Shown here one piece after another: positions 45,140 through 64,000 of a stretch of DNA of 64,000 nt. The stretch lies in assembly GCF_035348955.1 (NCBI RefSeq), contig NZ_DAOPRM010000002.1. One strand, written 5' to 3'. This DNA comes from Ottowia sp. (GTDB lineage Bacteria; Pseudomonadota; Gammaproteobacteria; Burkholderiales; Burkholderiaceae_C). Positions within the stretch are counted from its first letter, which is position 1. Every line of letters begins with the position of its first letter. The translations under genes were made by a program, and so were the position numbers. The notes under the pieces were generated by a model. It saw nothing but the letters and a program-made list of their open reading frames with translations, did no database searches and had not been told where the DNA came from.

Positions 45140-45154
45140 GCGCGTCGGCCAGCC

Positions 45155-47569: not shown

Positions 47570-47603
47570 AAGTGCAGATCACTTGCGTGCGAGGCGCCGG
47601 CCG

Positions 47604-48413
47604 TCAGCCCAGCGATATCAGCGCCCGGTTGCCCTGGCGGCGGCCCAGCAGGTTGAGCAGGTTGGCCAGCTGCGCCTCCTGGCCGGGGGCGGCGCTGGCC
47701 TCGCCCGTAAAGCGCAGGCGCGAGCCGACCCAGCGGCCGCTGCCCGACAGCTGCAGCGCGCCTTCCAGCGTGGACAGCTCCATCGACACCGCGTCGCCAC
47801 CGCGCAGCTGCACGCGGTACGAACCGAGGGGTTGCAGCGTCGACAGGCGCGACGACAGCTGGCGCAGCGTCAGGTCGGCGCCGCCAGCCATGCTGGCGCG
47901 GCCGGCACGCCATTCGGCCGCCAGGCCCTGTGTGGCCAGCGTCAGCTCGCCCTGCGGCTGGACGGTGTTGAACGGGGTGCCCAGCCCGGCCAGCAGCGCG
48001 GCGGGCCATTGTGTCTGCGCGTCGGCCAGCAGCAGCCGCGCGCCGCCCCACAGCGGGCTGATGCGCATGGCCAGCGGCGCCGCGGGCGTGCAGCAGTCGG
48101 CGCGCAGGTCCAGCCGCAGCGCGCCCAGCGCCGGCCGCAGCCGCCAGTGCACCTGGCCGGGCAGGGCGCTGCGGTCCTGGCTGCCCGCGCCGCCCGTCAC
48201 CAGCAGGCGGGCCGAGCCGTTCCACAGGCTGCCGGTCGGTTCGGCCAACTGCAGCATGCCGCCTGTGCCCCGCGCCACCCCTTCAGCCAACCAGCGCGCC
48301 GGGGCCGCCAGCACGCCCACCAGCAACAAGCCCAGCAGCAAGCCTGCAAATGCCCAGCCCCAAGGGGCGCGGGTCGAGGGTGCGGCAGGTGCTGCACGGC
48401 GCAGCGTCCTCAT
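47604..48413 (-). CDS. gspN: T2SS protein GspN
   Basis: N-terminal TM, APARWL, GSLWNGSA, GLGTPFNT, PLGSY. Confidence 0.85.
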   Translation of the reverse strand: MRTLRRAAPAAPSTRAPWGWAFAGLLLGLLLVGVLAAPARWLAEGVARGTGGMLQLAEPTGSLWNGSARLLVTGGAGSQDRSALPGQVHWRLRPALGALRLDLRADCCTPAAPLAMRISPLWGGARLLLADAQTQWPAALLAGLGTPFNTVQPQGELTLATQGLAAEWRAGRASMAGGADLTLRQLSSRLSTLQPLGSYRVQLRGGDAVSMELSTLEGALQLSGSGRWVGSRLRFTGEASAAPGQEAQLANLLNLLGRRQGNRALISLG

Positions 48414-48610
48414 ATCGCGACGTCCCCGCCAATGCCCGAAGCGAAGCGGCCGCCAAAGCGCCCGTCATGCCCCGTGCCGCTCCACATGTCCGATGGCCGC
48501 GGAGCAGGCCACGCGTGGGCGCCGTGGCCGGGCTTGCACCGGCCAGGGGCGCCGTCCCCCTCCCATAGGAGAGGGGGAAGACGCCACAGGCGTCTCAGGG
48601 GGTGCGTCAT
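48410..48610 (-). other. 66-aa repeat-derived bridge ORF overlapping gspM stop and gspN start (ATGA at both ends)
   Basis: tcat at 48607-48610 and 48410-48413; open frame MTHPLRR...GDVAI. Confidence 0.5.
48495..48602 (-). repeat. Family A repeat after gspM stop
   Basis: rc ccccctgagacgcctgtggcgtcttccccctctcctatgggagggggacggcgcc..ggcctgctccgcggcc. Confidence 0.85.
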
Positions 48611-49140
48611 GGAATCCCCAGCGCCACCGTGCCGTTCCACAGCACCGGCGCCCCCGGCGCGTTGTCGCCGGCGCGGGTCAGGCGCGCCTCGACGGGGTTG
48701 GCGCGCGCGTTGGCGCGGGCGTCGGCCAGCCATTGCGCCAGCGCGTCGGCGGGCGCCTGCTTCAGCACCACGTTGGCGCGGTCGCCCACCACGCTCAGCT
48801 GGGCGTTGGCGCCCAGCCGCTGCTTGACGGTGGCTTCCAGCGCGTGCAGCGCCTCGTCGCGGCCCAGCTTGGGCAGCGCCTTCAGCGATTCGGCCTCGTC
48901 GCGCAACTGCTGCAGGCGCTGCGACTGGGCGGCCAGTTCGGTGCGCTGCGCCTCGGCCTGGCGCAGCGTGCGCAGCGCGGGCGCCAGTGCCAGCAGCCAC
49001 AGCAGGGCCAGCGCGACCACCGCAGCAGCCAGCGCCACCAGACGGCGTTCGCGCGCGTCCAGCCGGGCCCAGGCGGCGCGCGCGCGGGCCGGGGCGCTGC
49101 CGGGCGCGGCGGTGGTGGGGCGGCGGGCCAGCGTGCTCAT
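48607..49140 (-). CDS. gspM: T2SS protein GspM
   Basis: W..L..RERRL + TM, LAQWLADAR.NAR, WNGTV; ATGA overlap with gspL. Confidence 0.88.
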   Translation of the reverse strand: MSTLARRPTTAAPGSAPARARAAWARLDARERRLVALAAAVVALALLWLLALAPALRTLRQAEAQRTELAAQSQRLQQLRDEAESLKALPKLGRDEALHALEATVKQRLGANAQLSVVGDRANVVLKQAPADALAQWLADARANARANPVEARLTRAGDNAPGAPVLWNGTVALGIP

Positions 49141-50354
49141 GGCGCGGCCACCTGTCGCAGCACGGTGCTGTCGCCTTCGGCGGACAGGGCGTAGCCTTGC
49201 GGGCGCAGGCGCTGGTTGGCGTCGGTCAGCGCGGCGGCGGCCACCGTGACGCCTTTCAGCCGCAGCTCGCCTGCTGCAAATTCGATAGCTGTCGGCGCAG
49301 TACTGACGGGCGCTGACTGCGCAAAAGCCTGCAGCATCGGCTCCAGGTCGCGCGGCGAGGCGGCGCCGGTGGCCTGGCGCAGCTGGGCGACCTCGCGCGC
49401 CATCTGCGCCGGCGCGTCCACCACCACCTTGACGGCGGGGAAAGTCTGGGTCAGCAGCGCCTGGTTGGCGGCGCGGCGCGCGGCCAGATCGTCCTGCGTG
49501 CGCCAGGCCAGCACGTTCAGGCCGATCAGGTTGGCCAGCACCAGCAGCGCCAGCCCCCAGCGGGCTGGCCGCCACAGCGGGGCGTGCAGAAAGTCGCGCC
49601 ACAGCGCACCGGCGCGCTTGGCGGCGCGCGCGCGCCCGGTGCGGGCAAACTGGAACTGCGCCAAATCCCACCCGCTGCGGCTGGCGCGCAGCAGGCGCTG
49701 CGCGGGCGATTCGATGGCGACCGGTTGCTGCAGCGTCTGTTCGGCCAGCGCCGCCACGGCCGGTTCGGCGCGCAGCTCGGGCAGCGGCGCGTCGTCGGGG
49801 CGGGGCGGCAGCAGCGCCAGCGTGCCGACGTCGAGCGGCAGCGCCTGCGCGCCGCCCGGCACCTCGGCGCCGCTCATCAGCAGCAGGGCGCGCTCCGGCG
49901 TGCCGGTCACCAGCCATTGCAGCGGCCCGTCCTGCGGCGGCAGCTCGGGCACGATGCGGCTGACCGGGCGGCCGGCGGCTTCCAGCGCGGCCATGTGGTC
50001 GGCCAGCCAGGCGCGGTCGCATACGGCCACCCAGGCGCTGGCGCCGGCCTGTGCGCCGGGCGCCAGGGCGAAGTGAAGGCCTTCGACGTCGTCCAGCACC
50101 TGCTCTTCCAGCAGGCCGTCGAGCACGGTGCGCAGGCGCGGCGAGGCGGGGCCAACGCCGCGGGGCAGCGTCACCCGCTGCCACGACAGCTGGCTGGCCG
50201 GCGCCACGGCCACCACTTCGACACCGCGCCCGGCCGGCGGCAGCAGCGCCGGCGCCGCGCTGCCATGCGCCGCCACGCCCTGGCCGTCGTCCGAGGTGGC
50301 AAAGTCATAGCCGGCCGGCGCACCCGGCGGCAGGGCGATCAGAAGGAGGCTCAT
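49137..50354 (-). CDS. gspL: T2SS protein GspL
   Basis: LSWQRV.LP, LEEQVLDD..LHFAL, WDLAQF, TM, TFP.V.VVVDAP.QM. Confidence 0.9.
   Translation of the reverse strand: MSLLLIALPPGAPAGYDFATSDDGQGVAAHGSAAPALLPPAGRGVEVVAVAPASQLSWQRVTLPRGVGPASPRLRTVLDGLLEEQVLDDVEGLHFALAPGAQAGASAWVAVCDRAWLADHMAALEAAGRPVSRIVPELPPQDGPLQWLVTGTPERALLLMSGAEVPGGAQALPLDVGTLALLPPRPDDAPLPELRAEPAVAALAEQTLQQPVAIESPAQRLLRASRSGWDLAQFQFARTGRARAAKRAGALWRDFLHAPLWRPARWGLALLVLANLIGLNVLAWRTQDDLAARRAANQALLTQTFPAVKVVVDAPAQMAREVAQLRQATGAASPRDLEPMLQAFAQSAPVSTAPTAIEFAAGELRLKGVTVAAAALTDANQRLRPQGYALSAEGDSTVLRQVAAP
49273..49335 (+). repeat. Family B motif embedded in gspL coding sequence (antisense)
   Basis: gctgcaaattcgatagc-tgtcg-gcgc-agtactgacgg-gcgc-tgactgcgcaaaagcc. 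Confidence 0.7.
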
Positions 50355-50756: not shown

Positions 50757-51443
50757 TCAGCCGATAAACCGATAGCCCACGCCAGCTTCCGTCACAAGAT
50801 GCTTCGGGCGCGACGGGTCGCTCTCGATTTTCTTGCGCAGATTAGCCACGTGCACGCGCACGTAGTGAGTGTCTTCTGCGTGACCTGGCCCCCAGACCGC
50901 GCGCAGCAGTTGGCGGTGCGTGACCACTCGCTCAGGCTGACCGATCAGGTGCGTCAGAAGACGGTATTCAATAGGCGTCAAATGCAGTACTTCATCGGCT
51001 CGTGTGACCACGCGCCGGCTCAAATCGACGCTCACCTCGCCGAACGAGACGGTGGCTTCGCCAGTTTGCCCAGCAGTCCCTTGGCGCCGCAACTGAGCAC
51101 GAACGCGCGCCAGTAATTCACCGGCACCAAACGGTTTCACAAGGTAATCGTCGGCGCCTGCGTCGAGTGCTTCAATCTTTTCGGCTTCACGGCTGCGCGC
51201 AGATAGGACGATGATGGACGTGTCCGACCAGTTGCGCAAGTCACGAATCAGATCTACGCCGTCGCCGTCGGGCAATCCCAAATCCAGCACAAGCAAATCG
51301 GGGCGGCGCGTGCCAGCTTCAATCAGTCCGCGATCACAAGTGGCCGCCTCATACACTTCGTATCCAGCGCTCTCCAAGGCCATGCGCACGAAGCGCCGAA
51401 TGTCGGCCTCGTCTTCAACGATCAGGATACGCACAACGTTCAT
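50757..51443 (-). CDS. kdpE: Response regulator KdpE
   Basis: GTRRPDL..LDLGLPDGDG, HLTPIEYRLL, VWGP, THYVRV. Confidence 0.95.
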   Translation of the reverse strand: MNVVRILIVEDEADIRRFVRMALESAGYEVYEAATCDRGLIEAGTRRPDLLVLDLGLPDGDGVDLIRDLRNWSDTSIIVLSARSREAEKIEALDAGADDYLVKPFGAGELLARVRAQLRRQGTAGQTGEATVSFGEVSVDLSRRVVTRADEVLHLTPIEYRLLTHLIGQPERVVTHRQLLRAVWGPGHAEDTHYVRVHVANLRKKIESDPSRPKHLVTEAGVGYRFIG

Positions 51444-54196
51444 GATTCGGCATTGTCCGCCAGCGCTGGCACCGCACTGCCGTCATCCTGGGGCGGCGTA
51501 CCACGCGGCAAGGTGATGACAAAGCGCGCGCCCCCCACACCGCCATTCTCGACGCGGTTTTCACCGTGAATCCTGCCGCCGTGGGCCTGAAGGATGGCGC
51601 GGCAGATGGCCAGGCCCAGGCCCACGCCCGGCGTGGCCGTCTCCTTGTCGCCGCGCTCGAATTTATCGAACACCGCCTCTTCGCGCCCACGCGGCAGGCC
51701 GGGACCATCGTCCTCAATGGTGATGCGCACATCGCTGCCGCTCAGGGCCGCGCCGACGTGGATCGCGGTGGCCGGTGGCGTGTACTTGGCGGCGTTTTCA
51801 AGCAGGTTCACCAGCACACGCTCAAACATCGCGGCGTCCAGGCGCAGCATGGGCAAGTCGGGCGCCAGTTGCACAGTCACCTGACGCTTACCCAACGCAG
51901 GCCCGCAGGCGGCGAGCGCGCTGCCCAGCACTTCTTCGAGGGGCTGCCATTCGCGCCGCAATTGCACCGCGCCTGACTCCAACCGCGCCATGTCGAGCAG
52001 GTTGGTGACCAGCGCGTTCATGCGCAACGCTGAGGCACGGATGGCGCCGGCCACTTCCACCTGGGCGGGCGCCAGGGGTGAAGTTATGACCAGCGTATCG
52101 GCCAGGCCCACGAGCGCTGCCAGCGGAGTGCGCAAATCGTGCGAGATGGCCGACAAGAGCGAGTTTCGTAGCCGCTCTGATTCAATTTGCACCGTGCTGG
52201 CTTGCGCCACTTCAATGTAGTGGATGCGTTCCAAGGAAATCGCCAACAGCGACGCGCAGGTGTCAAGCAACTGGCGCTGCTCGGGAGTTAGCAATGTGGC
52301 CTGCGTGGGTTGAACGGCCAACACCCCGCGCAGCCGCATCGGTGCTTTCAGCGGCAGCATCAAGCAGTCGCTGGACGGCAGCGTGTTGGTGCCGCGCCCG
52401 GCCGCCTCGCCCTTATCGAAAGCCCATTGTGCGACGGCCCGATCAGGCTGGGCGGTGGCACCAGGCTGCAATTGCAGTTGATCGCTCGCGTCGGCGACCA
52501 GCAGCGCCGACCGTGCAGCAAGCTCACCCGACAGAAAGCGCGCGCCGATCTCGGCGACCTGCTCCGGTTGCAGGGCAGCGGAGAGTTCGCGCGACATCTG
52601 GTAGAGCCCACGCACCCTTCGTTCGCGCTCGGTGGCGGCCTGTGCCTGCGCACGCAGCCCGGCCGTGAGTTGCCCCACCACTAGCCCCACCAGCAACATG
52701 ACGGCGAAGGTAATGAGGTACTGCACGTCGCTGACGGTGAACGAAAAGCGCGGGGGCACGAAAAAGAAATCGAACAGCGCGACACCGACAAAGGACGCCA
52801 GCACCGCCGGCCCGCGCCCATAGCGCAGCGCGATGCCGACCACCGCCAGCAGGAACAGCATCACGATGTTGCTGAGTTCCAGCACGCTGATAAGCGGGGT
52901 CGCGGCGACTCCGATGAGTGCACAACCGACTGTCGCGGCCACGTAGCCCTGCCACTGAATGGCGTTCGACTCAAGTTCTTTCCGGCGTGTCTTGAAGCCT
53001 TTGCGCTCCTCTATCGGTAGCGGAACCTGGAGTACGTCCATGTCGGGCGTCTGACCCGCCAAGCGTTCGGTCAACGAGCGCTCCCACGGCCAGCGTCGCG
53101 GCCGCCAGCCCAGCACCAGACGCGAAAGGTTGTGTTCGCGCGCATAGCGCACCAGTGTGTCGGCTACGTCGGCGCCAGTGGGCGTGGCGGTAGTTGCGCC
53201 CAGCTCCTGAGCCAGCTTCAACGCCCGCAGCGCCTGTTGGCGAGCGGCGTCGCCCACGCGCTGCCCAGCGGGCGCATCCACGAAGATGGCGTGCCACGGT
53301 AAATCGGTCTGCGCAGCCAGGCGCGCCGCGCTGCGTACGACCGCCTCTCCACCCGCGCCGGGGCCGACGCAGGCCAGCAGCGCATCGCGCGTTGACCAGG
53401 CTGGCTGCCCTGGCACACCATCGCCGCTGCTGCGGCGCCAGTGCTGCATCTGTGTGTCCACGCGGTCGGCGGTGCGGCGCAGTGCCAGCTCGCGCAGCGC
53501 AATGAGGTTGCCCTTGCGAAAGAAGTTGGCCGCCGCCCGCTCGGCCTGTTGCGGCACGTAGACCTTGCCGGCCTTCAGGCGCGCCAGCAACTCGTCGGGC
53601 GGCAGGTCGACCACCACCACTTCATCGGCGGCGTCGAACAGGGTGTCGGGCACCGTCTCCCATACGCGAATGCCCGTAATCCCGCCGACGATGTCGTTCA
53701 GGCTTTCGAGGTGCTGCACGTTCATCGTGCTCCACACGTCGATGCCGGCGGCCAGCAGCTCTTCCACGTCCTGCCAGCGCTTGGGGTGGCGCGAGCCTGG
53801 CGCGTTGCTGTGCGCCAGCTCGTCCAGCAAAACCAGCGGCGGCTCGGCTCCGCCCTTGTGCTCGGCGCCAAATGCCAGCGCCGCGTCGAGGTCGAACTCC
53901 TTCAGCACGCGCTCGCGGTAAGGCACATCTTTCAGCGCCAGCAGCGGCAGGCCGGCCACCAGGGCCTCAGTCTCGGCGCGGCCATGCGTCTCGACCAACC
54001 CCACGATCAGGGGCACGTCCTGCGCCAGCGCGGTGCGCGCGGCCGACAGCATCGCGTAGGTCTTGCCGACGCCAGCCGAGGCACCGAAGAAGATTTTTAG
54101 GCGCCCGCGCCGCGCCTTGGCTTCTTCCTGCTGCACGCGCGCGAGCAGCGCGTCTGGGTCTGGACGGTCGTCCTCTGGTGACGCGTGGGATGGCAT
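51440..54196 (-). CDS. kdpD: Sensor histidine kinase KdpD
   Basis: RPDPDALL, GVGKTYAML, DELAHSN, KRWQDV, 4 TM, ISHDLRTPL. Confidence 0.96.
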   Translation of the reverse strand: MPSHASPEDDRPDPDALLARVQQEEAKARRGRLKIFFGASAGVGKTYAMLSAARTALAQDVPLIVGLVETHGRAETEALVAGLPLLALKDVPYRERVLKEFDLDAALAFGAEHKGGAEPPLVLLDELAHSNAPGSRHPKRWQDVEELLAAGIDVWSTMNVQHLESLNDIVGGITGIRVWETVPDTLFDAADEVVVVDLPPDELLARLKAGKVYVPQQAERAAANFFRKGNLIALRELALRRTADRVDTQMQHWRRSSGDGVPGQPAWSTRDALLACVGPGAGGEAVVRSAARLAAQTDLPWHAIFVDAPAGQRVGDAARQQALRALKLAQELGATTATPTGADVADTLVRYAREHNLSRLVLGWRPRRWPWERSLTERLAGQTPDMDVLQVPLPIEERKGFKTRRKELESNAIQWQGYVAATVGCALIGVAATPLISVLELSNIVMLFLLAVVGIALRYGRGPAVLASFVGVALFDFFFVPPRFSFTVSDVQYLITFAVMLLVGLVVGQLTAGLRAQAQAATERERRVRGLYQMSRELSAALQPEQVAEIGARFLSGELAARSALLVADASDQLQLQPGATAQPDRAVAQWAFDKGEAAGRGTNTLPSSDCLMLPLKAPMRLRGVLAVQPTQATLLTPEQRQLLDTCASLLAISLERIHYIEVAQASTVQIESERLRNSLLSAISHDLRTPLAALVGLADTLVITSPLAPAQVEVAGAIRASALRMNALVTNLLDMARLESGAVQLRREWQPLEEVLGSALAACGPALGKRQVTVQLAPDLPMLRLDAAMFERVLVNLLENAAKYTPPATAIHVGAALSGSDVRITIEDDGPGLPRGREEAVFDKFERGDKETATPGVGLGLAICRAILQAHGGRIHGENRVENGGVGGARFVITLPRGTPPQDDGSAVPALADNAES

Positions 54197-54217
54197 GGCC
54201 GATGGTATGCGTGAAGC

Positions 54218-55075
54218 TCAGAACGTCTTGCCCACCTGCAGCACCAGCGCCGCTCGGTTGAGTGCGCGCGTGGCGCCGTCGGTGGCCGACAGGCCGCCGG
54301 TGGGCGGGCGGTAGAAGCGGTTGTTGGTGGCGCCGACGACGCCGACCGAGGCGCTCCAACCGCCCTCGAAGGTCTTGGCCAGCGCCACGCGCCAGTCGGC
54401 GTAGTTGGGGCTGTGGCCACTCGCCGTCGCGCGCAGGTCGGTGTAGCCGGCGTGCAGGATCAGGTGCAGGCTGCCGTCCAGCGGCACCGTGGCCGTCAAA
54501 TCGTGATACAGCGTTCCGCGCGTGCCTCGGCTGTAACTGGTGCGCGTGTTGGCACCAAAGTAATCGGTGGCGGAAACCGACACCTTATAGGCCAGCCACT
54601 TCCAATTCACCCCGGCGTTGATTTCAAGCGTGTTGAAGCGTTGGCTCGGCAAGCCGCCACAGGGTGCGCTTAAAGCAGCCGACGGGCAGGTGGCCTGGCT
54701 CACATTGGCGCCAGGGTAGATGTAACCATACAGGCCGGCGGTGTAGCCCCAGTCCTCATTGACCTTGCCGTTGTAGCCGCCGTACACATCCAACTCGGCG
54801 CCGCCGCCGGGGTAGGCTCGCGAACTCACGTTGGAAGCCCAGAAACCGGCGTACCAGCCGCTGGGATGGGCGTAGTCCACGCCGCCTTGCAGCGCCGGCC
54901 GTCCCCAAGTCTGGTCGATGCCGCGAAAGCGGTAGTGGCTGACGAGGTTCAGGTTGGCGGTGAAGGGCTTGCCCGGCGGCGCCTCGTCGGCCCAGGCGGG
55001 AGCGGACAACAAGGAAGCGGCAAGCACAAGACAAGAGGTGTGTTTCATGGCCGTGAATCCATTCACAGGGGTCAT
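54218..55075 (-). CDS. TorF-family putative outer-membrane porin
   Basis: Signal peptide, S.YRFRGIDQT...PALQGG.DY...GWYAG.WASNV, C-terminal F; start 55075 or 55048. Confidence 0.8.
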   Translation of the reverse strand: MTPVNGFTAMKHTSCLVLAASLLSAPAWADEAPPGKPFTANLNLVSHYRFRGIDQTWGRPALQGGVDYAHPSGWYAGFWASNVSSRAYPGGGAELDVYGGYNGKVNEDWGYTAGLYGYIYPGANVSQATCPSAALSAPCGGLPSQRFNTLEINAGVNWKWLAYKVSVSATDYFGANTRTSYSRGTRGTLYHDLTATVPLDGSLHLILHAGYTDLRATASGHSPNYADWRVALAKTFEGGWSASVGVVGATNNRFYRPPTGGLSATDGATRALNRAALVLQVGKTF

Positions 55076-55191
55076 TCGTCCGGCGCATCGCTGGGTGACC
55101 TGTTGCGCCGAACCAGCCAGCGCGCCAGCAACAAGGGCATCAGCACGATCAGCAGCGCCAAGCTCAGAGACAGCCAGTCGGTCGAACCCAT
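55072..55191 (-). CDS. 39-aa single-TM peptide between kdpB and the porin gene
   Basis: MGSTDWLSLSLALLIVLMPLLLARWLVRRNRSPSDAPDE; ATGA overlap with porin ATG 55075. Confidence 0.55.
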   Translation of the reverse strand: MGSTDWLSLSLALLIVLMPLLLARWLVRRNRSPSDAPDE

Positions 55192-55207
55192 GGTCGCGCC
55201 CCGTGCC

Positions 55208-57301
55208 TTAGGCCATGCCCAGCGCGGTCAGCGCCAAGTCAATCAGCTTGATGCCAATGAAGGGCACCACCACGCCACCGACACCATAAAGCAGCAGATT
55301 GCGGCGAAGCAGATCGGCGGCGGGCGCTGCGCGGTATTTCACGCCTTTGAGCGCCAGTGGAATCAAAAACACGATGATGAGTGCGTTGAAAATCACCGCC
55401 GACAGAATCGCCGACGAGGGGCTGGCCAGTCTCATCACGTTCAGCGCGCCCAGTTGCGGATAGGTGCTGACAAAGGCCGCCGGGATGATGGCGAAATACT
55501 TGGCCACATCGTTGGCGATGCTGAACGTGGTGAGCGAGCCACGCGTCATCAGCATCTGCTTGCCGGTCTCGACGATCTCGATCAGCTTGGTCGGGTTGCT
55601 GTCCAGATCGACCATGTTGCCGGCTTCCTTGGCGGCCTGGGTGCCGGTGTTCATGGCCACCGCCACGTCGGCCTGCGCCAGCGCGGGGGCGTCGTTGGTG
55701 CCGTCTCCGGTCATCGCCACCAGTTGGCCGCGCGCCTGGTGCTCGCGGATCAGCGCCAGCTTGGCTTCGGGCGTGGCCTCGGCCAGAAAATCGTCCACGC
55801 CGGCTTCGGCGGCAATAGCGGCGGCCGTCAACCGGTTGTCGCCGGTGATCATAACCGTCTTGATGCCCATGCGGCGCAGCTCGGCAAAGCGCTCCTTGAT
55901 GCCGCCTTTGATGATGTCTTTCAGCTCGACCACGCCCAGCGCCCGCGCGCCGTCGGCTACCACCAGTGGCGTGCTGCCCCGGCGCGAAACTTCGTCCACC
56001 GCTTGTTGCACTTCGGGTGGGAAGTGGCGGCCCAGCGCCTCAACGTACTTTCGCAGCGCGTCGGCGGCGCCTTTTCGGATGGCGCGGCCTTCGGGCAGGT
56101 CAACGCCGCTCATGCGCGTCTGGGCGGTGAAGTGCACGAACTGCGCGCCCAGCGCTTCGACCTCGCGCTCGCGCAGGTTGAACTTCTGCTTGGCCAACAC
56201 CACGATGCTGCGGCCCTCGGGCGTCTCATCGGCCAGCGAGGCCAGTTGCGCGGCGTCGGCCAGTTGCTCCTCGCTCACGCCGGGCGCGGGCAAGAAGCTG
56301 CTCGCTTGCCGATTGCCCAGCGTGATGGTGCCCGTCTTGTCCATCAGCAGCACGTCCACGTCGCCAGCGGCTTCCACCGCGCGGCCCGATGTGGCAATCA
56401 CATTGGCCTGCATCATGCGGCTCATGCCTGCCACGCCGATGGCCGAGAGCAAACCGCCAATGGTGGTGGGAATCAGGCATACCAGCAGGGCCACCAGCAC
56501 CGTGACGCTGACCACCGCGCCGCTGCCCGCCTGCGCCACGGCAAAGGCCGAATACGGCCGGAGCGTGACGATGACCAGTAGAAACACCAGCGTCAGGCCG
56601 ACCAGCAAAATCGTCAGCGCAATCTCGTTGGGCGTTTTCTTGCGGCTGGCGTTCTCGACCATGGCGATCATGCGGTCAACAAAAGTCTCGCCCGGGTTGA
56701 CCGCCACGCGCGCCACGATCCAGTCCGACAGCACACGCGTGCCGCCGGTCACCGCCGAGAAATCGCCGCCCGATTCGCGGATCACCGGCGCCGATTCGCC
56801 GGTGATGGCCGATTCATCGACCGAGGCCACGCCGTCGATCACCTCGGCATCGGCCGGAATCACGTCGCCCGCCTCAATCAGCACCACGTCGCCCTTGCGC
56901 AGGCTGGTGGCTTCGGTCGGTAGCCAATTCAGTTCGCTGCGCTGGCATGCTCGGTCATAGGCCCCGCCGTCGAGCTTTTTGGCCCAAGTCTGCTTCTTCA
57001 ACCCGCGCAGGCTGGCCGCCTGTGCCTTGCTACGCCCTTCGGCCAGCGCCTCCGCGAAGTTGGCGAACAGGACGGTGAACCACAGCCACAGCGCAATCGC
57101 CAGGATGAAGCCCGCCGGCGCCTCGCCCTTGCCACCCAGCGCCTGGAAGAACAGCATGGTGGTGAGGATGGAACCCAGATAGACCACGAACATCACCGGG
57201 TTTCGCCACTGTTGCTGCGGTGCGAGCTTGCGCGCCGCGTCCCACAGCGCGGTGCGCATCAGCGACCGGTCAAACAGAGAGAGGGATTTGTTTTCGGACA
57301 T
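55208..57301 (-). CDS. kdpB: K+-transporting ATPase subunit KdpB
   Basis: [32 protein letters not shown]. Confidence 0.97.
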
Positions 57302-57323
57302 GGGAGATGCTCCGATTCGCTAT

Positions 57324-58013
57324 TTATTTGGTAGCTGGCTGCGCTTGTTGAACGCCGGGAAAGGCGGCATTCAATGCCAAATTGAGCCGAAGCACGTTGA
57401 CGCGCGGCTCGCCCAGCAAGCCAAGCACGCGGCCTTCCGTATGCTGACTCAAAAATTGTTGCACCTGCTCCAAGGGGATGCCGCGCGCCTTGGCCACGCG
57501 CCCCACCTGGGCTTGCGCGTTGGCGACCGAGATGTGCGGATCGAGCCCGGAGGCTGAGGCGGTGACGGCGTCCACCGGCACTGGCGCGGTAGAGCCGAGC
57601 CCGTTGGTTTTGCGGTAATCCGCCACGCGCTGCGTCACGGCGTCAATCAGCGCCTGGTTGGTCGGCCCCTGGTTGCTGCCAGCGGACAACGCGGCGTTGT
57701 AGGGCGCGGCGACGGTCTTGCTGGCGTCCTGCGGATCGGGCGCGCTGGTGGCGCTGGGGCGCGGGTGGAAGTGGCGCGCGTCGCTGAAATGCTGGCCGAT
57801 TAGGTCGGAGCCGATCAACGCGCTGCCGCGCTCGATCAGGCTGCCGCCCGCTTGGCGCGGCATCAGCATCTGCGCCACGCCGGTGGTCAGCAGCGGATAA
57901 ACCAGGCCGGTGAGCAGCGCCACGAAGACGGCGCCGCGCAGGCAGGGGCCGATCAGGCCACGCAGCGGTGATGCGGCAGCCACGGTGTCGGGGGTGATTT
58001 CAAGTGTGTTCAT
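57324..58013 (-). CDS. kdpC: KdpC
   Basis: GLVYP, GS.LIGQ.F, FHPRPSA, VTASASGLDPHIS, VNVLRLN. Confidence 0.95.
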   Translation of the reverse strand: MNTLEITPDTVAAASPLRGLIGPCLRGAVFVALLTGLVYPLLTTGVAQMLMPRQAGGSLIERGSALIGSDLIGQHFSDARHFHPRPSATSAPDPQDASKTVAAPYNAALSAGSNQGPTNQALIDAVTQRVADYRKTNGLGSTAPVPVDAVTASASGLDPHISVANAQAQVGRVAKARGIPLEQVQQFLSQHTEGRVLGLLGEPRVNVLRLNLALNAAFPGVQQAQPATK

Positions 58014-58028
58014 GCGTGCGCTCCTGCT

Positions 58029-59735
58029 TCACGGATAGACATTGCCAGCCAGCATCTGCAACTGCTCGACCAAGGGGCCAAGCGCCAGCGCGGGCAAAAA
58101 AGTGAGGCCGCCGACGATCAGCACCACAAACACCAGCAGGCCCATGAACAGCGGCGTGGCTGTGGGGAAAGTGCCTGGCCCGGCTGGCACCGTCTTCTTG
58201 GCCGCCAGTGAACCGGCGACGGCCAGCATGGGCAAGAGCGTGAGGTAGCGGCCCACCAGCATCGCCAGACCGATGGTGGTGTTGAAAAACGGCGTGTTGG
58301 CGTTAAAGCCCGCAAAAGCCGAGCCGTTGTTGGCCGTGCCCGAGGTGTAGGCGTACAGCACTTCTGAAAAGCCGTGCGGGCCGTGGTTGGCCAGGCTCGC
58401 GGGCGTGTCCGGCCACATACTGGCCAGCGCGGTGAAGCCGAGGATGGCCGCCGGATGCGCCAGCACCGACAGCATCACCAGCTTGATCTCACGCGCCTCG
58501 ATCTTCTTGCCCAAAAACTCCGGTGTGCGGCCAATCATCATGCCGGCCAGGAACACGGTGAGGATGGCGTATTGCATCAGGTTGATGAAGCCCACGCCGT
58601 CACCGCCGAACACGCAGTTGAGCATCATCTGCGCCAGCGGCACGGCACCGCCCAGCGGCGTGAGCGAGTCGTGCATGGTGTTGACCGAGCCCGTGGTGGC
58701 GGCCGTGGTCACGGCCACGAACAAGGCACTGTCGGCGATGCCAAAGCGCATCTCCTTGCCTTCCATGTTGCCGCCGGGCTGCGTGGCGGTGAGCGTCTGG
58801 TCAGCACCCGCCTTGCTGAGCAGCGGGTTTCCGGTCTGCTCGGCGCCATAGACCATCGCCAAAAAGCCGATGAACATCACCACAAAAGCGCCGAAGAACA
58901 CCCAGCCTTGCCTTTTGTTTGCGAGCATCGTGCCGAAGGCGACGGTAAGCGCCGACGGAATCAAGAGCATCGACAAGATGTGCAACAGGTTTGTGAGCGG
59001 CGTCGGGTTTTCGAACGGGTGGGCCGCGTTCATGCTGAAAAAGCCGCCACCATTGGTGCCGATGTGCTTGATGGTCTCGAAGCTCGCGACTGGCCCCAGG
59101 ATGATTTGCTGGCGCGCGCCTTCCACCGTGGTCACCGTGGCTTGCGAGGCCAGCGTCTGCGGCATGCCCTGCCACACATACACCAGCGCCAGCACAAAGC
59201 ACAGCGGCAGCATCACGCGCCACAGCACGCGCATGAAATCGACCCAGTAGTTGCCGATGTCTGCGCTGCTGGCACGCCCCAACGCACGGATGAAGCCGCC
59301 CGCCGCCGCCACGCCCGCCGTCGCGCCGGCAAACATCAGGAAGGTGATCGCCACCATCTGCGTCGCGTTGGACAGACTGGCTTCGCCCGCGTACGCCTGC
59401 CAGTTGGTGTTGGTGATGAAGGAGGCCGCCGTGTTGAACGCCAAGTCGGGCGGCTGCGCAGCATTGCCCAGCCCGTTCAACGGCAGCACGCCCTGCAAGC
59501 GCAGCAGTAGGTAGCCCAGCCCCATCATCGCTGCGTTGGACAGCAGCAGCGCCAGCCCGTAGCGCGGCCAGCCCATGCGCTCCGATGGATTGACGCCAAG
59601 CGCGCGGTAGCTCAGGCGCTCCGCCGCCCAATGATGTGGGTCATCGAAAGCGCGCGCCAACCAGCGGCCCATTAGCAACGCCAGGCCGGTCATCACGGCC
59701 AGCACCAAGGCAAATTCAAACAGGTTGAGTCCCAT
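58029..59735 (-). CDS. kdpA: KdpA
   Basis: [41 protein letters not shown]. Confidence 0.97.
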
Positions 59736-59744
59736 GGCGGCTCC

Positions 59745-59828
59745 TTACAAACGCCGAAGCGCCAGCACCATCCAGGCCACGGCAGCAAAGAAGGCTACGG
59801 ACACGCCGACAAAGATCAGGTCTTGCAT
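59745..59828 (-). CDS. 27-aa hydrophobic peptide between kdpF and kdpA
   Basis: MQDLIFVGVSVAFFAAVAWMVLALRRL; its TAA runs into the AGGAG RBS of kdpA. Confidence 0.65.
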   Translation of the reverse strand: MQDLIFVGVSVAFFAAVAWMVLALRRL

Positions 59829-59840
59829 GGCGGCCCCGCT

Positions 59841-59939
59841 TTAGAACTGCTCGGGCCGCAGCAAGGCGTAGCCCAAGTAGACGAACAGCCCCAGCGCGCC
59901 TGCGCCGGCCAGCCAGTAGATGAGGGTGAGCGAAGTCAT
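59841..59939 (-). CDS. kdpF: KdpF
   Basis: MTSLTLIYWLAGAGALGLFVYLGYALLRPEQF (YL.YALL.PE.F signature); AAGGA RBS. Confidence 0.88.
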   Translation of the reverse strand: MTSLTLIYWLAGAGALGLFVYLGYALLRPEQF

Positions 59940-60029
59940 GGCGTTCCTTTTGCGAATGAACCCGAAATCCCGGTATGGCGACGCTTCGTCGCCCTTGTTC
60001 ATGCGATAGGAAATGCTAGGCAGCGCGCC

Positions 60030-60205: not shown

Positions 60206-61210
60206 CTACGAGCCCCCGGCGGGCGTGCGAATCGCCGTGCGCTCGCGCCACAGCGTGGTCACGCGGCGCGTGGAGGGGTCGCGCTGCACCACCGACACTT
60301 CTTCCACCGCCAGCTGGTCCAGCCGCAGCCGGCCGCGCACCTCGAAGAAGCGGCTGCCGACGGCGGTCCAGCTGGCGTCGGCCTCGCCCGTGGCGACCTG
60401 GGCGATGGCGCTGGCGGCGTTGCGCAGGTAGGCGCGGTCGCGCTCGCCCACCAGGCGCTGCGCGGCCGCCAGGTCCAGCCCCGGCACCGCCGCGTAGATG
60501 ACCTGCGCGCTGGCGGTGTTGACGTTGACCAGCGTCGGCGCCTGCCCCTGCAAGGGCAGCACGGTGACGTAAGGCCGCAGCGCCGCCAGCGTGGCGGGCG
60601 ACACGCCCACCCACACCAGCTGGTCGAAGCGGCGCGGCAGCAGCGGCGCGTCGCCGCCCTCGCTGGCGCTGGCGGTCATGGCGGCCTGGGCGCGCGCCAG
60701 GTTGCGCTGCAGCGCGCCCAGCTCGGCCGACGGCAGGCCCAGCAGTTCAAACAGGCGCTGAAACCGCAGCAGCGCCTTCATGCGCGCGTCGGGGTCGGTC
60801 AGCGTCAGGTTCATGGCGTTCAGGCGCGACTGCAGGTCGACGATCTGTCCCGACAGGAAGGCGTCGCGCTCGATGTCGCCGGCGCTGGCCTCGCCCGCCG
60901 CCAGAAAGGTGGACAGCCGCGCCTCGGCCAGCGGCACCGCCCACGGCTCGCCCAGGTGGTCGACCGCGCCCGATTCGCGCAGGTCGCCCGCCAGAATCAG
61001 CCGGCTCCAGTCCAGCGCGCCCGACAGCAGCCAGGCCGACTGCCCGCGCGTGCGCTCGGCGGCCTCCACCTCGACCCCGCGCCACTGGCGCCACAGCGCG
61101 CCGGCCGCCAGCGTGGCGACCAGCACCACGGTGAGCATCGCCGCTAGCAGCGCCGCGCCGGTCTGGCGGTGCGCGGTCTGGCGGGTGCGGACAGGCGGGC
61201 GGCGCGGCAT
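60206..61210 (-). CDS. gspK: Minor pseudopilin GspK
   Basis: RQTG|AALLAAML, DHLGEPWA.PL, DLQSRLN, VNVNTAS. Confidence 0.9.
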   Translation of the reverse strand: MPRRPPVRTRQTAHRQTGAALLAAMLTVVLVATLAAGALWRQWRGVEVEAAERTRGQSAWLLSGALDWSRLILAGDLRESGAVDHLGEPWAVPLAEARLSTFLAAGEASAGDIERDAFLSGQIVDLQSRLNAMNLTLTDPDARMKALLRFQRLFELLGLPSAELGALQRNLARAQAAMTASASEGGDAPLLPRRFDQLVWVGVSPATLAALRPYVTVLPLQGQAPTLVNVNTASAQVIYAAVPGLDLAAAQRLVGERDRAYLRNAASAIAQVATGEADASWTAVGSRFFEVRGRLRLDQLAVEEVSVVQRDPSTRRVTTLWRERTAIRTPAGGS

Positions 61211-61956
61211 CACGAGCCCCCCACGAAGTCGGGCCGCACCCAGTCGATCACCAGCGGCCCGGCCAGCGGCTGGCCGGGCGCCAGGGTGAGGAACAGGCGC
61301 ACGCCGTCCGGCAGCACGCGCGTGTCGGCGCCCGACGGCGCGCCGCTGGACAGCGGGTGGGTCCAGGCGTTCTGGCGGAAGTAGTGCAGTTGCCAGTCCA
61401 GCGCGGCGGCCACGGTGACCGCCTGCGCGCCGCCCGGCAGTGCGCCGGTGGCGGCGTCGCCGCCCTGGCCCCACGCCGCGGCCGCGTCCCAGGCGCTGGC
61501 CCACGCCGCCTGCGACAGCACCGGCGCCGACTGCCAGCGCTGCCACTGCCCGCCGGTGCTGCGGCGCGTCCACGCCACCACGCGCAGCCCCGCCGCCGCA
61601 TCGCCCGCGGCGGTGCGGGTGATGCGCAGCGTGTGCCCGTCCCACGCCAGGCTGCGCTGCAGCGCGGGCGGCGGCTGTGCGGTCGGCGAATCGGCGGCAG
61701 CGGCCGGCCACGTCATCATCGCGTCCAGATCGGTGCGCCACTGCGCCAGCCCCGCCTGCGTCGCCAACACCTCGTCCGTGTACCGCCGCGTCGCGTCCTG
61801 CGCCCGCAACATCCCGTCGATCCCGCGCCAGCTCAGCACCGCGATCACCGCCATGATCGTCAGCGCGACCAGCACTTCGATCAAGGTAAAGCCGCGCGAT
61901 TTTTTCAAGCTAAATACGGCCTCAGCGCTTTCCAAATCGGCGCACTCAGCTATCAA
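61210..61956 (-). CDS. gspJ: Minor pseudopilin GspJ; start uncertain (TTG 61956 or TTG 62286)
   Basis: SRG|FTLIEVLVAL, SWRGIDGM, QWRTDLD, LPDGVRL. Confidence 0.85.
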   Translation of the reverse strand: MIAECADLESAEAVFSLKKSRGFTLIEVLVALTIMAVIAVLSWRGIDGMLRAQDATRRYTDEVLATQAGLAQWRTDLDAMMTWPAAAADSPTAQPPPALQRSLAWDGHTLRITRTAAGDAAAGLRVVAWTRRSTGGQWQRWQSAPVLSQAAWASAWDAAAAWGQGGDAATGALPGGAQAVTVAAALDWQLHYFRQNAWTHPLSSGAPSGADTRVLPDGVRLFLTLAPGQPLAGPLVIDWVRPDFVGGS

Positions 61957-61965
61957 AACCGTAGT
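61901..61965 (-). repeat. Family B motif forming the gspJ leader
   Basis: rc actacggttttgatagc-tgagt-gcgc-cgatttggaaa-gcgc-tgaggccgtatttagcttgaaa. Confidence 0.8.
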
Positions 61966-61988
61966 TTCGCCACCCGCCACCCCCCATC

Positions 61989-62280
61989 GCGGCCGCGCAG
62001 CAGGCCGCCCCAAACGGCCGCGGAGCAGGCCACGCGCGAACGCCGTCGCCGGACCTGCGCCGGCGACTGGCGTTGTCCCCCTGGGGGGATGGCGCCGAAG
62101 GCGATCTGGAACCTGCTCGAAGCCCCGGCGCGAGGCGGATGGGATGCGGCTTGGGATGGGATGCCAGGCGCGATTCGCCGCCAATGGCTCGTGCCATTGG
62201 CAAGAATCGCAACGCCGCAGCCCGCCCAAGTCCGCGCCCAGCCGTCCGCGGCGGGGCTTCGAGCAGGTTCCCAGGGGGGG
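61989..62280 (-). repeat. Family A repeat (interrupted by a MITE) after gspI stop
   Basis: Near-identical to the 62900-63041 and 63563-63689 copies. Confidence 0.8.
62108..62271. mobile_element. 164-bp MITE-like element with 20-bp perfect terminal inverted repeats
   Basis: GGAACCTGCTCGAAGCCCCG ... CGGGGCTTCGAGCAGGTTCC; splits a family A copy at ccccctg|ag. Confidence 0.75.
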
Positions 62281-62282
62281 CC

Positions 62283-62687
62283 TCAATTCCTCCCCACAAT
62301 CGTAGAAAGCTGCAACACCGGCACGCCCCCCTCGCTGACCGCCGCCTCGACGCGCCGGAAGTTGGGGTTGGGCGTGGGCCGCACGATCTGCGCCACCTGA
62401 AACTGCCGCCCCGCCTGCGGGCATTCGACCACGCTGTCGCCCACGCCCGGCAACTGGCGCGCCAGCCGCAACTCGGTCAGCCGGTTCTCGGCGCAAATCT
62501 GCGCCAGCAGCACCGTGGCCTGCCGCCCCGCGTTGTCCGTCAGCGCCGACGTGGCCTTCAACCCCGCCGTCAGCGCAATCGCCGTGATGGCCAGCGCCAC
62601 CAGCACCTCGACCAGCGTGAAGCCGCGTGCTCGATGAGCGCCTGATGCCCCGTCAGCCCGCAATGGACAAGCGCGGAACGCTATCAA
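62283..62687 (-). CDS. gspI: Minor pseudopilin GspI; start uncertain (TTG 62687 up to ATG 63032)
   Basis: ARG|FTLVEVLVALAI, AQICAENRL, PTPNPNFRRV. Confidence 0.88.
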   Translation of the reverse strand: MIAFRACPLRADGASGAHRARGFTLVEVLVALAITAIALTAGLKATSALTDNAGRQATVLLAQICAENRLTELRLARQLPGVGDSVVECPQAGRQFQVAQIVRPTPNPNFRRVEAAVSEGGVPVLQLSTIVGRN

Positions 62688-62696
62688 AACAGGATT
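62634..62696 (-). repeat. Family B motif forming the gspI leader
   Basis: rc aatcctgttttgatagc-gttcc-gcgc-ttgtccattgc-gggc-tgacggggcatcagg. Confidence 0.75.
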
Positions 62697-62740
62697 GCAG
62701 TCGATGCCACGCCATGACCGACGCTCGCTTGGGCGGTGGG

Positions 62741-62845
62741 CTCCTGCCCCCGCTGGGGGAAGGCTGGGATAGGGGCTGACCATCTTCGAGAAATCCCCCG
62801 TGGCGGGCCCCCACCCCAACCCTCCCCCAACGGGGGAGGGAGGAA
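62741..62845. repeat. Inverted pair of CCCCC..GGGGG hairpin repeats (family E)
   Basis: ctcctgcccccgctgggggaaggctgggataggggc ... gcccccaccccaaccctcccccaacgggggagggagg. Confidence 0.65.
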
Positions 62846-62899
62846 GAAACGTCGGATGGTTTTTGCAGACAGCCATGACCGAACCCTTCGCGCCCACCG

Positions 62900-63041
62900 G
62901 CGGCCGCGCAGCAGGCCGCCCCCAAAGGCCGCGGAGCAGGCCACGCCAGAACGCCGTCGCCGGACCTGCGCCGGCGCCTAGCGTTGTCCCCCTGGGGGGA
63001 TGGCGCCGCAGGCGACTCAGGGGGGATGTCATCTCAGGGGG
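62900..63041 (-). repeat. Family A repeat after gspH stop, with a ~16-bp tandem duplication of its 5' end
   Basis: rc atgacatccccctgag-atgacatcccccctgagtcgcctgcggcgcc... Confidence 0.8.
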
Positions 63042-63044
63042 ATG

Positions 63045-63515
63045 TCATCTGACTTCAAAAGGCCGCAGCCCATCGCTCACGACCTCCAGCGTGGCCGCGC
63101 CGTCGCCCGCCGCGCCCAGCAGCACCACCGCCTGCGCGTCGATGATGGGGTCAGGCCCCAGCCGCAGCGCGGCGTTGCCCACGGTGCGCGTGCGGGTGTC
63201 CAGCCAGTGCGTGGGCAGCGGCGGGCCGCCGGGCGGCAGGCCGTCCCACGCAAAGCCGGTGGCGGTGGCGCGCCAGGTGATCGGCACGCCGGCCGCCCGC
63301 GACTGCGCCCGCGCCGATTCCAGCAGCGCCGCCAGCCGGTCGGCCTCGCGCGCCAGGGCGCTCGCCCCGCTGTCGCGCAGCGCCAGGCTGGCCACGGCCG
63401 TGCCGATGGCGATGACGGCAATCACCACCATCAACTCCAGCAGGGTGAAACCGCGCCGGTTCTTCAAGCAAAAATGGCCTGGAGCGCTGGAGGGATAAGC
63501 GCGAGCAGCTATCAA
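63045..63515 (-). CDS. gspH: Minor pseudopilin GspH; start uncertain (TTG 63515 or TTG/GTG ~63539)
   Basis: RRG|FTLLELMVVIAVI, READRLAALLESARA.SR, LGPDPII, SDGLRPF. Confidence 0.88.
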   Translation of the reverse strand: MIAARAYPSSAPGHFCLKNRRGFTLLELMVVIAVIAIGTAVASLALRDSGASALAREADRLAALLESARAQSRAAGVPITWRATATGFAWDGLPPGGPPLPTHWLDTRTRTVGNAALRLGPDPIIDAQAVVLLGAAGDGAATLEVVSDGLRPFEVR

Positions 63516-63524
63516 AAAAGCAGT
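63461..63524 (-). repeat. Family B motif forming the gspH leader
   Basis: rc actgcttttttgatagc-tgctc-gcgc-ttatccctcca-gcgc-tccaggccatttttgcttgaag. Confidence 0.8.
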
Positions 63525-63562
63525 ATCTTTCGCCACCAACCGACACCCCCCTTCCCAATCAG

Positions 63563-63689
63563 CGCGGCCGCGCAGCAGGCCGCCCCCAATGGCCGCGGAG
63601 CAGGCCACGCCAGAACGCCGTCGCCGGACCTGCGCCGGCGACTGGCGTTGTCCCCCTGGGGGGATGGCGCCGGAGGCGACTCAGGGGGG
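63563..63689 (-). repeat. Family A repeat after gspG stop
   Basis: rc cccccctgagtcgcctccggcgccatccccccagggggacaacgcc..ggcctgctccgcggcc. Confidence 0.85.
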
Positions 63690-63697
63690 AACATCTA

Positions 63698-64000
63698 CTA
63701 CCAGGAGCCGACGTCCGCGTTCTTGCCCTCGCCGCCGCTGGCGCCGTCGGCGCCGAAGCTCATCACGTCCACCTCGCCCTTGACGCCCGGGTTCAGGTAC
63801 TGGTAGGGCCGGCCCCAGGGATCGTTGGGCAGCTTTTCGAGGTAGGGCTTCCAGTTGGTGGGCACGGGCGGGGCGGTGGGGCGCTGCACCAGCGCCTGCA
63901 GGCCCTGTTCGGCGCTCGGAAAGCGCTGGTTGTCCAGCTTGTAGAGCTTGAGCGCCTGCATGATGTTGTTGACGTCGGTGCGGGCGGCGGTGGCGCGGGC
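63698..64000 (-). CDS. gspG: Major pseudopilin GspG, C-terminal part (5'-truncated)
   Basis: ALKLYKLDN.RFP..EQGL.ALV, YLEKLPNDPWG.PYQY.NPG, S.GADG..GGEG.NAD.GSW. Confidence 0.95.
   Translation of the reverse strand, partial: ARATAARTDVNNIMQALKLYKLDNQRFPSAEQGLQALVQRPTAPPVPTNWKPYLEKLPNDPWGRPYQYLNPGVKGEVDVMSFGADGASGGEGKNADVGSW

Follow-up and report, generated by a model that had tools for sequence, protein, structure and literature searches.

Dispersed repeats in the putative prepilin leaders of the gspH, gspI and gspJ genes of an Ottowia species

Why do the reading frames of three successive pseudopilin genes run into the same dispersed repeats, and where does their translation start? The question is raised by a 64,000-nt stretch of DNA from Ottowia sp. 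(contig NZ_DAOPRM010000002.1 of assembly GCF_035348955.1, hereafter the window), in which gspG, gspH, gspI, gspJ and gspK of a type II secretion system (T2SS) occupy the final 4 kb of the minus strand in the operon order G-H-I-J-K. The genome, with a GC content of 67.6%, is available as a 3.23-Mb draft in 178 contigs and is about 85% complete. An earlier reading of the letters without database searches (the sequence-only reading) had noticed two repeats in front of gspH, gspI and gspJ, here called family A and family B. As it stated, the TTG of the family B motif TTTTGATAGC, which we call the anchor, lies exactly 66 nt (22 codons) before the first codon of the mature protein (Phe+1) in all three genes, in frame and free of stops. 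We could reproduce the three leader peptides that it quoted, which have no ATG within the 22 codons. Each gene also has the upstream family A copy that it described, and the three copies are pairwise 95-97% identical.

The explanation that we regard as probable is that the repeats sit inside a translated, cleavable leader within which start codons can drift, and that families A and B and two palindromes, C and D, are dispersed, non-coding repeats of an Ottowia-like genus, resembling repetitive extragenic palindromic (REP) elements or MITEs (miniature transposable elements with inverted repeats). In the packed gspG-H-I-J-K operon each downstream start would sit on the upstream stop, so only the short leader-coding segment could accept an insertion. 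Insertions would persist in this segment when the reading frame stays open. The leader would be cytoplasmic and removed at Gly|Phe by a single prepilin peptidase, so that the repeat-encoded peptide would never be found in the mature pseudopilin. Within the open frame, start codons would be kept at the old junction, gained inside a repeat, or lost. Translation and cleavage of the leaders, and the choice of start, we infer from the sequence; the repeat counts, the register, the open frames, the junction starts and the gap lengths in the different species are observed.

The genes concerned are recognizable prepilin genes, and the motif G|FTL.E is encoded by all five of gspG to gspK. A class III signal peptide is found in gspH, gspI and gspJ by matches to PF07963 and TIGR02532 and by the motif G|FTL(I/V/L)E, with Gly-1, Phe+1, Glu+5 and a hydrophobic helix. 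GspI passes the TIGR01707 equivalog cut-off (53 bits, cut-off 44). GspH and the GspJ-like product find their best-matching families below the cut-offs, with 49 bits for TIGR01708 (cut-off 80) and 26 bits for TIGR01711 (cut-off 65). The genes are intact, without any frameshift, and the dN/dS of the mature parts is 0.06-0.68 against four relatives. The pseudopilin genes thus look functional, with mature parts apparently under purifying selection. The genome has one prepilin peptidase gene (Peptidase_A24).

Family B has about 548 nhmmer matches in 3.2 Mb, counting both strands, which puts the chance of a sense anchor at any given base at about 1e-4; the arrangement at the three genes is not due to chance. 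We compared the locus with 24 genomes of the same genus (Ottowia-like Comamonadaceae, with a GspJ identity of 52-76%), a genus to which Ottowia thiooxydans DSM 14619 and 'Burkholderiales bacterium 68-10' belong. Eight species carry B upstream of gspH, at a constant 66 nt from Phe. Seven have it in front of gspJ (63, 66, 72 or 90 nt) and two in front of gspI (66 and 72 nt). The identical register therefore holds within this genome and gives way in relatives to several distances, all of them multiples of 3. All 17 pseudopilin-associated copies of the genus are in the sense orientation, in frame 0 and stop-free, compared to 50-59% of generic copies that are stop-free there. This suggests that B is probably translated as part of the leader. 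Among the genomes examined outside the genus, B was not found at these pseudopilin genes.

The lengths and frames of the gaps in the genus point in the same direction. Species that lack insertions have a gspI start lying across the gspH stop as ATGA and a gspJ start lying across the gspI stop as TGATG. These species also have the short native leaders that the sequence-only reading had proposed to look for (6-19 residues). Gap lengths in the 24 genomes vary between 14 and 719 nt for gspH-I and gspI-J. The length of the gspI-J gap is 2 mod 3 in 20 of the 24, including 12 of the 14 gaps longer than 100 nt (107-719 nt), and frame 0 is stop-free in 14 of 16 H-I and I-J gaps of more than 100 nt. In a total of 2052 gap codons, frame 0 contains 11 stops; the other two sense frames hold 40 and 63, and the antisense frames 15-35. 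An in-frame junction start (ATGA, TGATG, TGAnATG or TTGA) followed by an open frame to Gly|Phe is found in 22 of 23 H-I pairs and 22 of 24 I-J pairs. For example, relatives L002 and L008 have a gspJ junction ATG upstream of B in the same open frame. Outside the genus, 8 H-I and I-J gaps reach 100 nt or more, and all of them are open.

Many expanded gaps offer no start close to the cleavage site. In 9 of the 14 expanded gspI-J gaps of the genus, the canonical start nearest to Phe is no closer than 14-60 codons. In the complete genome of L012, the nearest canonical gspJ start lies 60 codons upstream and the junction ATG 69 codons upstream. The largest gap, the 719 nt between gspI and gspJ in the complete genome of L004 (G020:C1), contains 3.4 tandem copies of a 165-nt (55-codon) A'+B unit in the gspJ frame. 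The unit is made of the 3' half of A and of B, its copies are 92-95% identical, and 241 codons are open before Gly|Phe. Because the GspK tree places expansions in several clades and their contents differ, many independent expansions must have taken place. With net values of +5 to +29, the putative leaders are strongly basic, and none contains a membrane-like stretch; this fits the positive-inside topology described in PMC10191384. Overall, comparative support for the predicted translation through the repeats is unusually strong.

In the Ottowia genome itself, the three gaps are mosaics of repeats (Table 1). The G-H gap consists of A and B; the H-I gap of a duplicated junction, A, palindrome D and B; and the I-J gap of palindrome C, A and B. 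No repeat lies between gspJ and gspK, where the end of gspJ is overlapped by the start of gspK. The two large gaps (423 and 392 nt) are both open in the frame of the downstream gene. As a matched null we used the other codirectional gaps of the same genome that hold A or B. Of 112 A-holding gaps, 15 are open in the downstream frame (0 of 12 at 300-450 nt), as are 12 of 201 B-holding gaps (1 of 21 at 300-450 nt), in counts built on a crude codon-usage gene finder that missed gspI and gspJ.

Table 1. Features of the gspG-gspK region in window coordinates; negative numbers in brackets are codons before Phe+1.
Feature	Position	Strand	Evidence and remarks
gspG, 3' part (major pseudopilin)	63698..64000	-	PF08334 T2SSG, E 1.7e-39
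Family A copy, G-H gap	63564..63690	-	genome repeat census; begins few bases past gspG stop
gspH candidate starts TTG (-30), GTG (-29)	63534..63539 (63539, 63536)	-	purine-rich GGGAAGGGGGG upstream
Family B copy overlapping gspH 5' end	63465..63527	-	nhmmer E 1e-13; anchor TTG 63515-63513 (-22), tail TTG 63467-63465 (-6); Phe+1 63449-63447
gspH mature coding region, Phe+1 codon to TGA stop	63045..63449	-	PF07963 N_methyl; best match TIGR01708 gspH
Junction tandem duplication (16/17 nt), gspH stop/gspI start, AGATGACATCCCCC(C)TG	63018..63050	-	repeat analysis
Family A copy, H-I gap, read through in gspI frame	62900..63026	-	genome repeat census
Palindromic repeat D	62727..62859	-	~20 other genomic loci by BLAST census
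Family B copy overlapping gspI 5' end	62637..62699	-	nhmmer E 8e-6; anchor TTG 62687-62685 (-22), inner TTG 62663-62661 (-14); Phe+1 62621-62619
gspI mature coding region	62283..62621	-	PF02501 T2SSI, E 4e-23; TIGR01707
gspJ junction TTG overlapping gspI stop (TTGA), 132 codons before Phe	62284..62286	-	relatives have a junction ATG (TGATG) there
Palindromic repeat C	62108..62271	-	inverted repeat, 25-nt arms 96% complementary; few other genomic copies
Family A copy, I-J gap, same reading frame as H-I copy	61989..62115	-	genome repeat census
Family B copy overlapping gspJ 5' end	61906..61968	-	nhmmer E 1e-11; anchor TTG 61956-61954 (-22), tail TTG 61908-61906 (-6); Phe+1 61890-61888
gspJ-like mature coding region	61210..61890	-	PF07963; best match TIGR01711 gspJ; position between gspI and gspK
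gspK	60206..61213	-	NF037980 T2SS_GspK, 228 bits (cut-off 130)

The candidate start codons differ from gene to gene. For gspH, the adjacent TTG -30 and GTG -29 have the strongest pairing to the anti-Shine-Dalgarno sequence among all candidate starts, and TTG -22 and TTG -6 (63467) are further candidates. The predicted minimum GspH leader would accordingly be one of 6, 22 or 29-30 residues. For gspI, the 3' half of the B copy is degenerate, and the nearest canonical start is TTG -14 (62663), itself inside B. Neither this codon nor TTG -22 is preceded by a Shine-Dalgarno-like sequence; ATG -85 and ATG -54 have one. At the gspH-gspI junction, the first ATG of the tandem duplication (63048) shares bases with the gspH TGA, and its frame closes after 4 codons, and the second ATG (63032-63030), 137 codons before Phe, has been brought into the gspI frame by the duplication. 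We estimate a GspI leader of at least 14 residues, possibly 54-137. For gspJ, the candidates are TTG -6 (61908), TTG -15, TTG -22, GTG -30 and the TTG on the gspI stop, which would allow a minimum leader anywhere from 6 to 132 residues.

Several observations weigh against long translated leaders. First, GC-rich repeats are poor in stops in several frames: for generic B copies, 4 of the 5 other combinations of orientation and frame are about as open as sense frame 0. Second, the G-H gap is closed in the gspH frame by a TGA inside A (63683-63681), and G-H lengths show no mod-3 conservation. Third, the gspJ junction ATG has been lost in this genome, leaving only a TTG. Fourth, the compared species are related, so naive probabilities overstate the significance of the counts. 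Fifth, a leader of more than 100 residues would need to be processed, and we know of no leader of this length that has been shown to be. Finally, gspH and gspJ have an in-frame TTG six codons before Phe that would give a textbook 6-residue leader, and a TTG at this tail position of B (+48 from the anchor) is found in 9 of the 17 pseudopilin-associated copies compared to 13.5% of generic copies. The short-leader start may thus be used as well as, or instead of, an upstream one, and some species probably also initiate near the cleavage site. In other species the tail TTG is mutated to TTA, TTC or CCC, and only upstream starts are left there. We read this pattern as start-codon turnover within a permissive open frame.

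A different explanation is that the repeats are untranslated intergenic REP insertions and that translation starts near the cleavage site, at TTG -6 in gspH and gspJ and at TTG -14 in gspI. The long open frames would be a by-product of GC-rich, stop-poor DNA, and the repeats may tune mRNA stability or attenuate transcription after gspG. The canonical leaders obtained from TTG -6 (MKNRRG|F and MKKSRG|F) and the enrichment of the tail TTG near pseudopilins speak for this explanation. It is also consistent with the many generic B copies directly before ordinary gene starts (ATG at +43 to +60 from the anchor), with the enrichment of B in convergent gaps, where terminator-like REPs are enriched, and with antisense frames of A that are stop-free in about 90% of copies. 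Nevertheless, we consider it unlikely. It leaves gspI with a TTG -14 or -22 that has no Shine-Dalgarno-like sequence, and it provides no canonical start closer than 14-60 codons to Phe in 9 of the 14 expanded gspI-J gaps. It does not account for the junction frame being kept in 12 of 14 gap expansions with junction starts retained, and the matched null gives only 0-5% open gaps at 300-450 nt.

A second alternative is the model of the sequence-only reading, in which the TTG of TTTTGATAGC starts all three genes with 22-residue leaders and an A+B cassette has replaced the native starts after moving among the paralogous Arg-Gly-Phe-Thr-Leu sites through gene conversion or targeted insertion. Besides the identical register, two sister species have an ATG at the anchor position before gspH, the three A copies are each other's closest relatives, and the A'+B unit of L004 has been amplified as a block. 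We nonetheless find this model improbable. In 6 of the 17 associated copies the anchor codon is not a start, and generic copies have a start there in 59% of cases, which leaves no enrichment. A start at TTG -22 lacks support in gspI, with no Shine-Dalgarno-like sequence before it. We had also tried the start codons at the anchor before gspH (7 of 8 species) as a separate signal and dropped it, as the same 59% of well-aligned generic copies have a start there.

The copies themselves do not behave as one unit. The A copies of the three gaps share 95-97% identity over about 120-127 nt and only 89-91% with the best other copies of the genome, indicating that A spread or was homogenized locally and recently. 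The B copies of gspH, gspI and gspJ are 52-60% identical, compared to a background median of 55%; being no more alike than random pairs, they are not recent copies of one another, which speaks against spread of B by gene conversion, and B at gspH and gspJ is old. A fixed cassette is likewise not found in this genome. The A-to-B spacing differs by 16 nt between the G-H and I-J gaps and by more than 200 nt in the H-I gap, and A of the G-H gap is read in another frame, with a TGA. Replacement of native starts is not supported as a general rule, with the junction start kept in nearly all genomes of the genus and in gspI here; in gspJ of this genome the junction ATG of the relatives is gone and only the TTG overlapping the gspI stop is left. 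In the G-H gap, a 60-codon open reading frame (ORF; window 63512-63694) starts 3 nt past the gspG double stop (TAGTAGATG), reads through A and ends on a TGA that overlaps the gspH anchor TTG (TTGA). This arrangement would suit an anchor start, but as a conserved 'bridge ORF' it was rejected, since it was not found in the relatives.

How, then, can three genes share one register? The distance from anchor to tail TTG in B is 48 nt, 5-8 codons separate B from Phe in the relatives, and the native leader, only 6-13 codons long, limits where B could insert. We attribute the shared 22 codons to this rigid geometry of B, together with the need to stay in frame and the narrow window upstream of the basic residues and Gly-1. 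Three equal values within one genome are then only mildly surprising. The uniform sense, frame-0 placement hints at ancient gene conversion between paralogous leaders or at a target preference. The sequence-only reading had suggested looking for the same register at other prepilin genes. The genome contains 13 prepilin-type genes, and none of the 10 outside gspH, gspI and gspJ carries B within 250 nt upstream. These ten start ordinarily with ATG or GTG and have leaders of 5-19 residues, apart from one whose nearest start is 34 codons upstream.

A last alternative, that the pseudopilin genes are decaying or silent and the repeats pile up in dead DNA, or that the region was misassembled through its near-identical A copies, could appeal to the fragmented draft, to three 95-97% identical repeats within 2 kb and to the sub-cut-off GspH and GspJ matches, and is very improbable given four intact genes with the dN/dS values above, the remaining T2SS genes and peptidase, and a shared arrangement, with A behind the stop and B ahead of Gly|Phe, in relatives that include single-contig genomes.

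We next turn to the repeats as such. The B core spans about -12 to +50 around TTGATAGC and consists of the palindrome GCGCTTG-N6-CAAGCGC followed by GG.GGCC and a T-rich tail. The whole is an imperfect palindrome of about 65 nt with an extended stem, high in copy number and mostly extragenic. At the 5' end, most copies have the tag ATAGC and a minority GTAGC. The three gsp copies fold weakly (z-scores 0.3, -1.9 and 1.0). In codirectional gaps, as delimited by the crude gene finder mentioned above, B is found in 113 sense and 130 antisense copies, and it is over-represented in convergent gaps. Both facts rule out B as a 5' untranslated region element specific to gene starts. We also rejected a sigma-70 promoter with TTGATA as the -35 box, on inspection by eye without a formal scan, as no -10 box is properly spaced.

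The genome has a single gene for a REP-associated tyrosine transposase (RAYT; contig C93:8003-8737, NF047646, 86.5 bits, cut-off 80). A B copy lies directly 3' of its stop, and only a partial B-like GGTAGC copy just before its start. RAYT is the likely mobilizer of B, and B is best described as a REP-like element. Other features of B are of interest. TTTGA is present at both its ends, which, like the duplicated junction at 63018-63050, may hint at the terminal inverted repeats and target-site duplications of a MITE, and the motif TTGATAG always provides a start in one frame and two stops in the next. Generic copies often end at a gene start (e.g. C6:78993, C28:19291 and C54:9929): at least 8 have an ATG exactly 49 nt from the anchor, and further copies have an ATG at +43/44. 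The GGAGG at +33 to +37 could act as a ribosome-binding site, and B may often donate or frame ordinary gene starts.

Family A is a multi-hairpin element of about 127 nt, with about 117 BLAST and about 167 nhmmer matches in the genome. In the gsp gaps, here and in the relatives, it begins 2-14 nt from the upstream stop codon, and genome-wide the codirectional gaps hold 112 sense and 9 antisense copies. This suggests that A acts or is selected at the RNA level, near the 3' ends of genes. In the whole genome, B follows A in 37 cases and precedes it in 1. An Rfam scan of positions 61700-63800 returned no real family, only sub-threshold and spurious microRNA-like matches on GC-rich hairpins, among them those at palindrome D.

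The closest published parallel is provided by Rickettsia palindromic elements (RPEs) and other MITE-like repeats that have inserted in frame into ORFs (PMC10969869, reviewing Ogata et al. 2000). As in the RPEs, small, gene-less, palindromic repeats of many copies would lie in frame and without stops inside ORFs and be tolerated by the host protein. Insertion of this kind is seen here by comparison, as an upstream junction start, an open frame and frame-preserving gap lengths. However, RPE peptides stay in the mature protein, whereas the insertions described here are confined to a segment predicted to be cut off. Nor do the elements resemble each other in sequence, and here a single leader holds a stack of several families.

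With regard to mobility, REP elements and bacterial interspersed mosaic elements (BIMEs) mobilized by RAYTs are described as GTAG/CGTC-tagged palindromes (PMC3733652). B resembles them as a high-copy imperfect palindrome with a conserved 5' (A/G)TAGC tag, mostly extragenic, enriched in convergent gaps and accompanied by a RAYT gene with a 3' B copy. It differs in a tag that is mostly ATAG and not GTAG, in being longer than the classic 20-40 nt REPs, and in its place in a putative coding segment, as classic REPs are described as extragenic. ERIC, Correia and BOX elements are likewise structured repeats that lie within a transcription unit, between its genes, and may influence how stable the mRNA is or how it is processed, and family A, with its 112 sense against 9 antisense copies, is strongly co-oriented with transcription; we found no relation to them in sequence, nor a match in Rfam, and they are mainly discussed as untranslated.

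Known long pilin leaders have roughly 15-30 residues and are not known to be built of repeats, while the open frames here imply 22 to about 240 residues of mobile repeats. Long class III signal peptides occur in type IVb pilins and in Streptococcus sanguinis pilins, and these are comparable: they vary in length, are hydrophilic or basic, lie in the cytoplasm and are cleaved off after Gly/Ala by the prepilin peptidase (PMC10191384). In a non-exhaustive literature search we came across no account of repeats within prepilin leaders, and none of these Comamonadaceae repeats.

Should the long frames be translated, prepilin peptidases would have to process leaders several times the length of any characterized so far, and the leader would be a rare site where a bacterial gene absorbs mobile DNA at no cost to the mature protein. 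Leader length would cease to be a reliable classifier of pilin type, and gene callers will mis-set the starts of such pilin genes. The system would also offer a natural way to ask how long a class III signal peptide may become, and a case in which translational coupling constrains where selfish repeats survive in compact operons. More tentatively, and with the odds somewhat against it, the cleavable prepilin leader could be a general safe harbor for selfish repeats. Leaders composed entirely of REP/MITE-like repeats, 50 to about 240 residues long, would be translated from the old coupled start and trimmed by prepilin peptidase, starts would turn over freely, and the stacked hairpins may set the low stoichiometry of the minor pseudopilins relative to GspG.

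Two further arrangements were seen among the relatives. The 233-nt gspI-gspJ gap of L006 (G015:C2) is an exception without a long leader. An ORF starts at the gspI stop (TGAgATG), reads across the insertion from end to end in another frame and terminates one base short of a new gspJ ATG (TGAcATG), nine codons from Phe. The junction motif is thus present at both ends of the insertion, like a target duplication or a translational relay. Upstream of gspH in L008 and L018, an antisense A-like element reaches the Gly|Phe codons (...cctcagggggGATTCACC), and the repeat seems to supply the Gly-1 codon.

Finally, gspG extends past the end of the window, with its TAG stop at 63700-63698, and gspL, gspN, gspD and gspE are found at 43742-50354. 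A potassium-pump operon, kdpFABC-DE, in which KdpA and KdpB are backed by Pfam and kdpF, kdpC, kdpD and kdpE are named from ORF reading only, splits the T2SS cluster between gspK and gspL (50757-60002).

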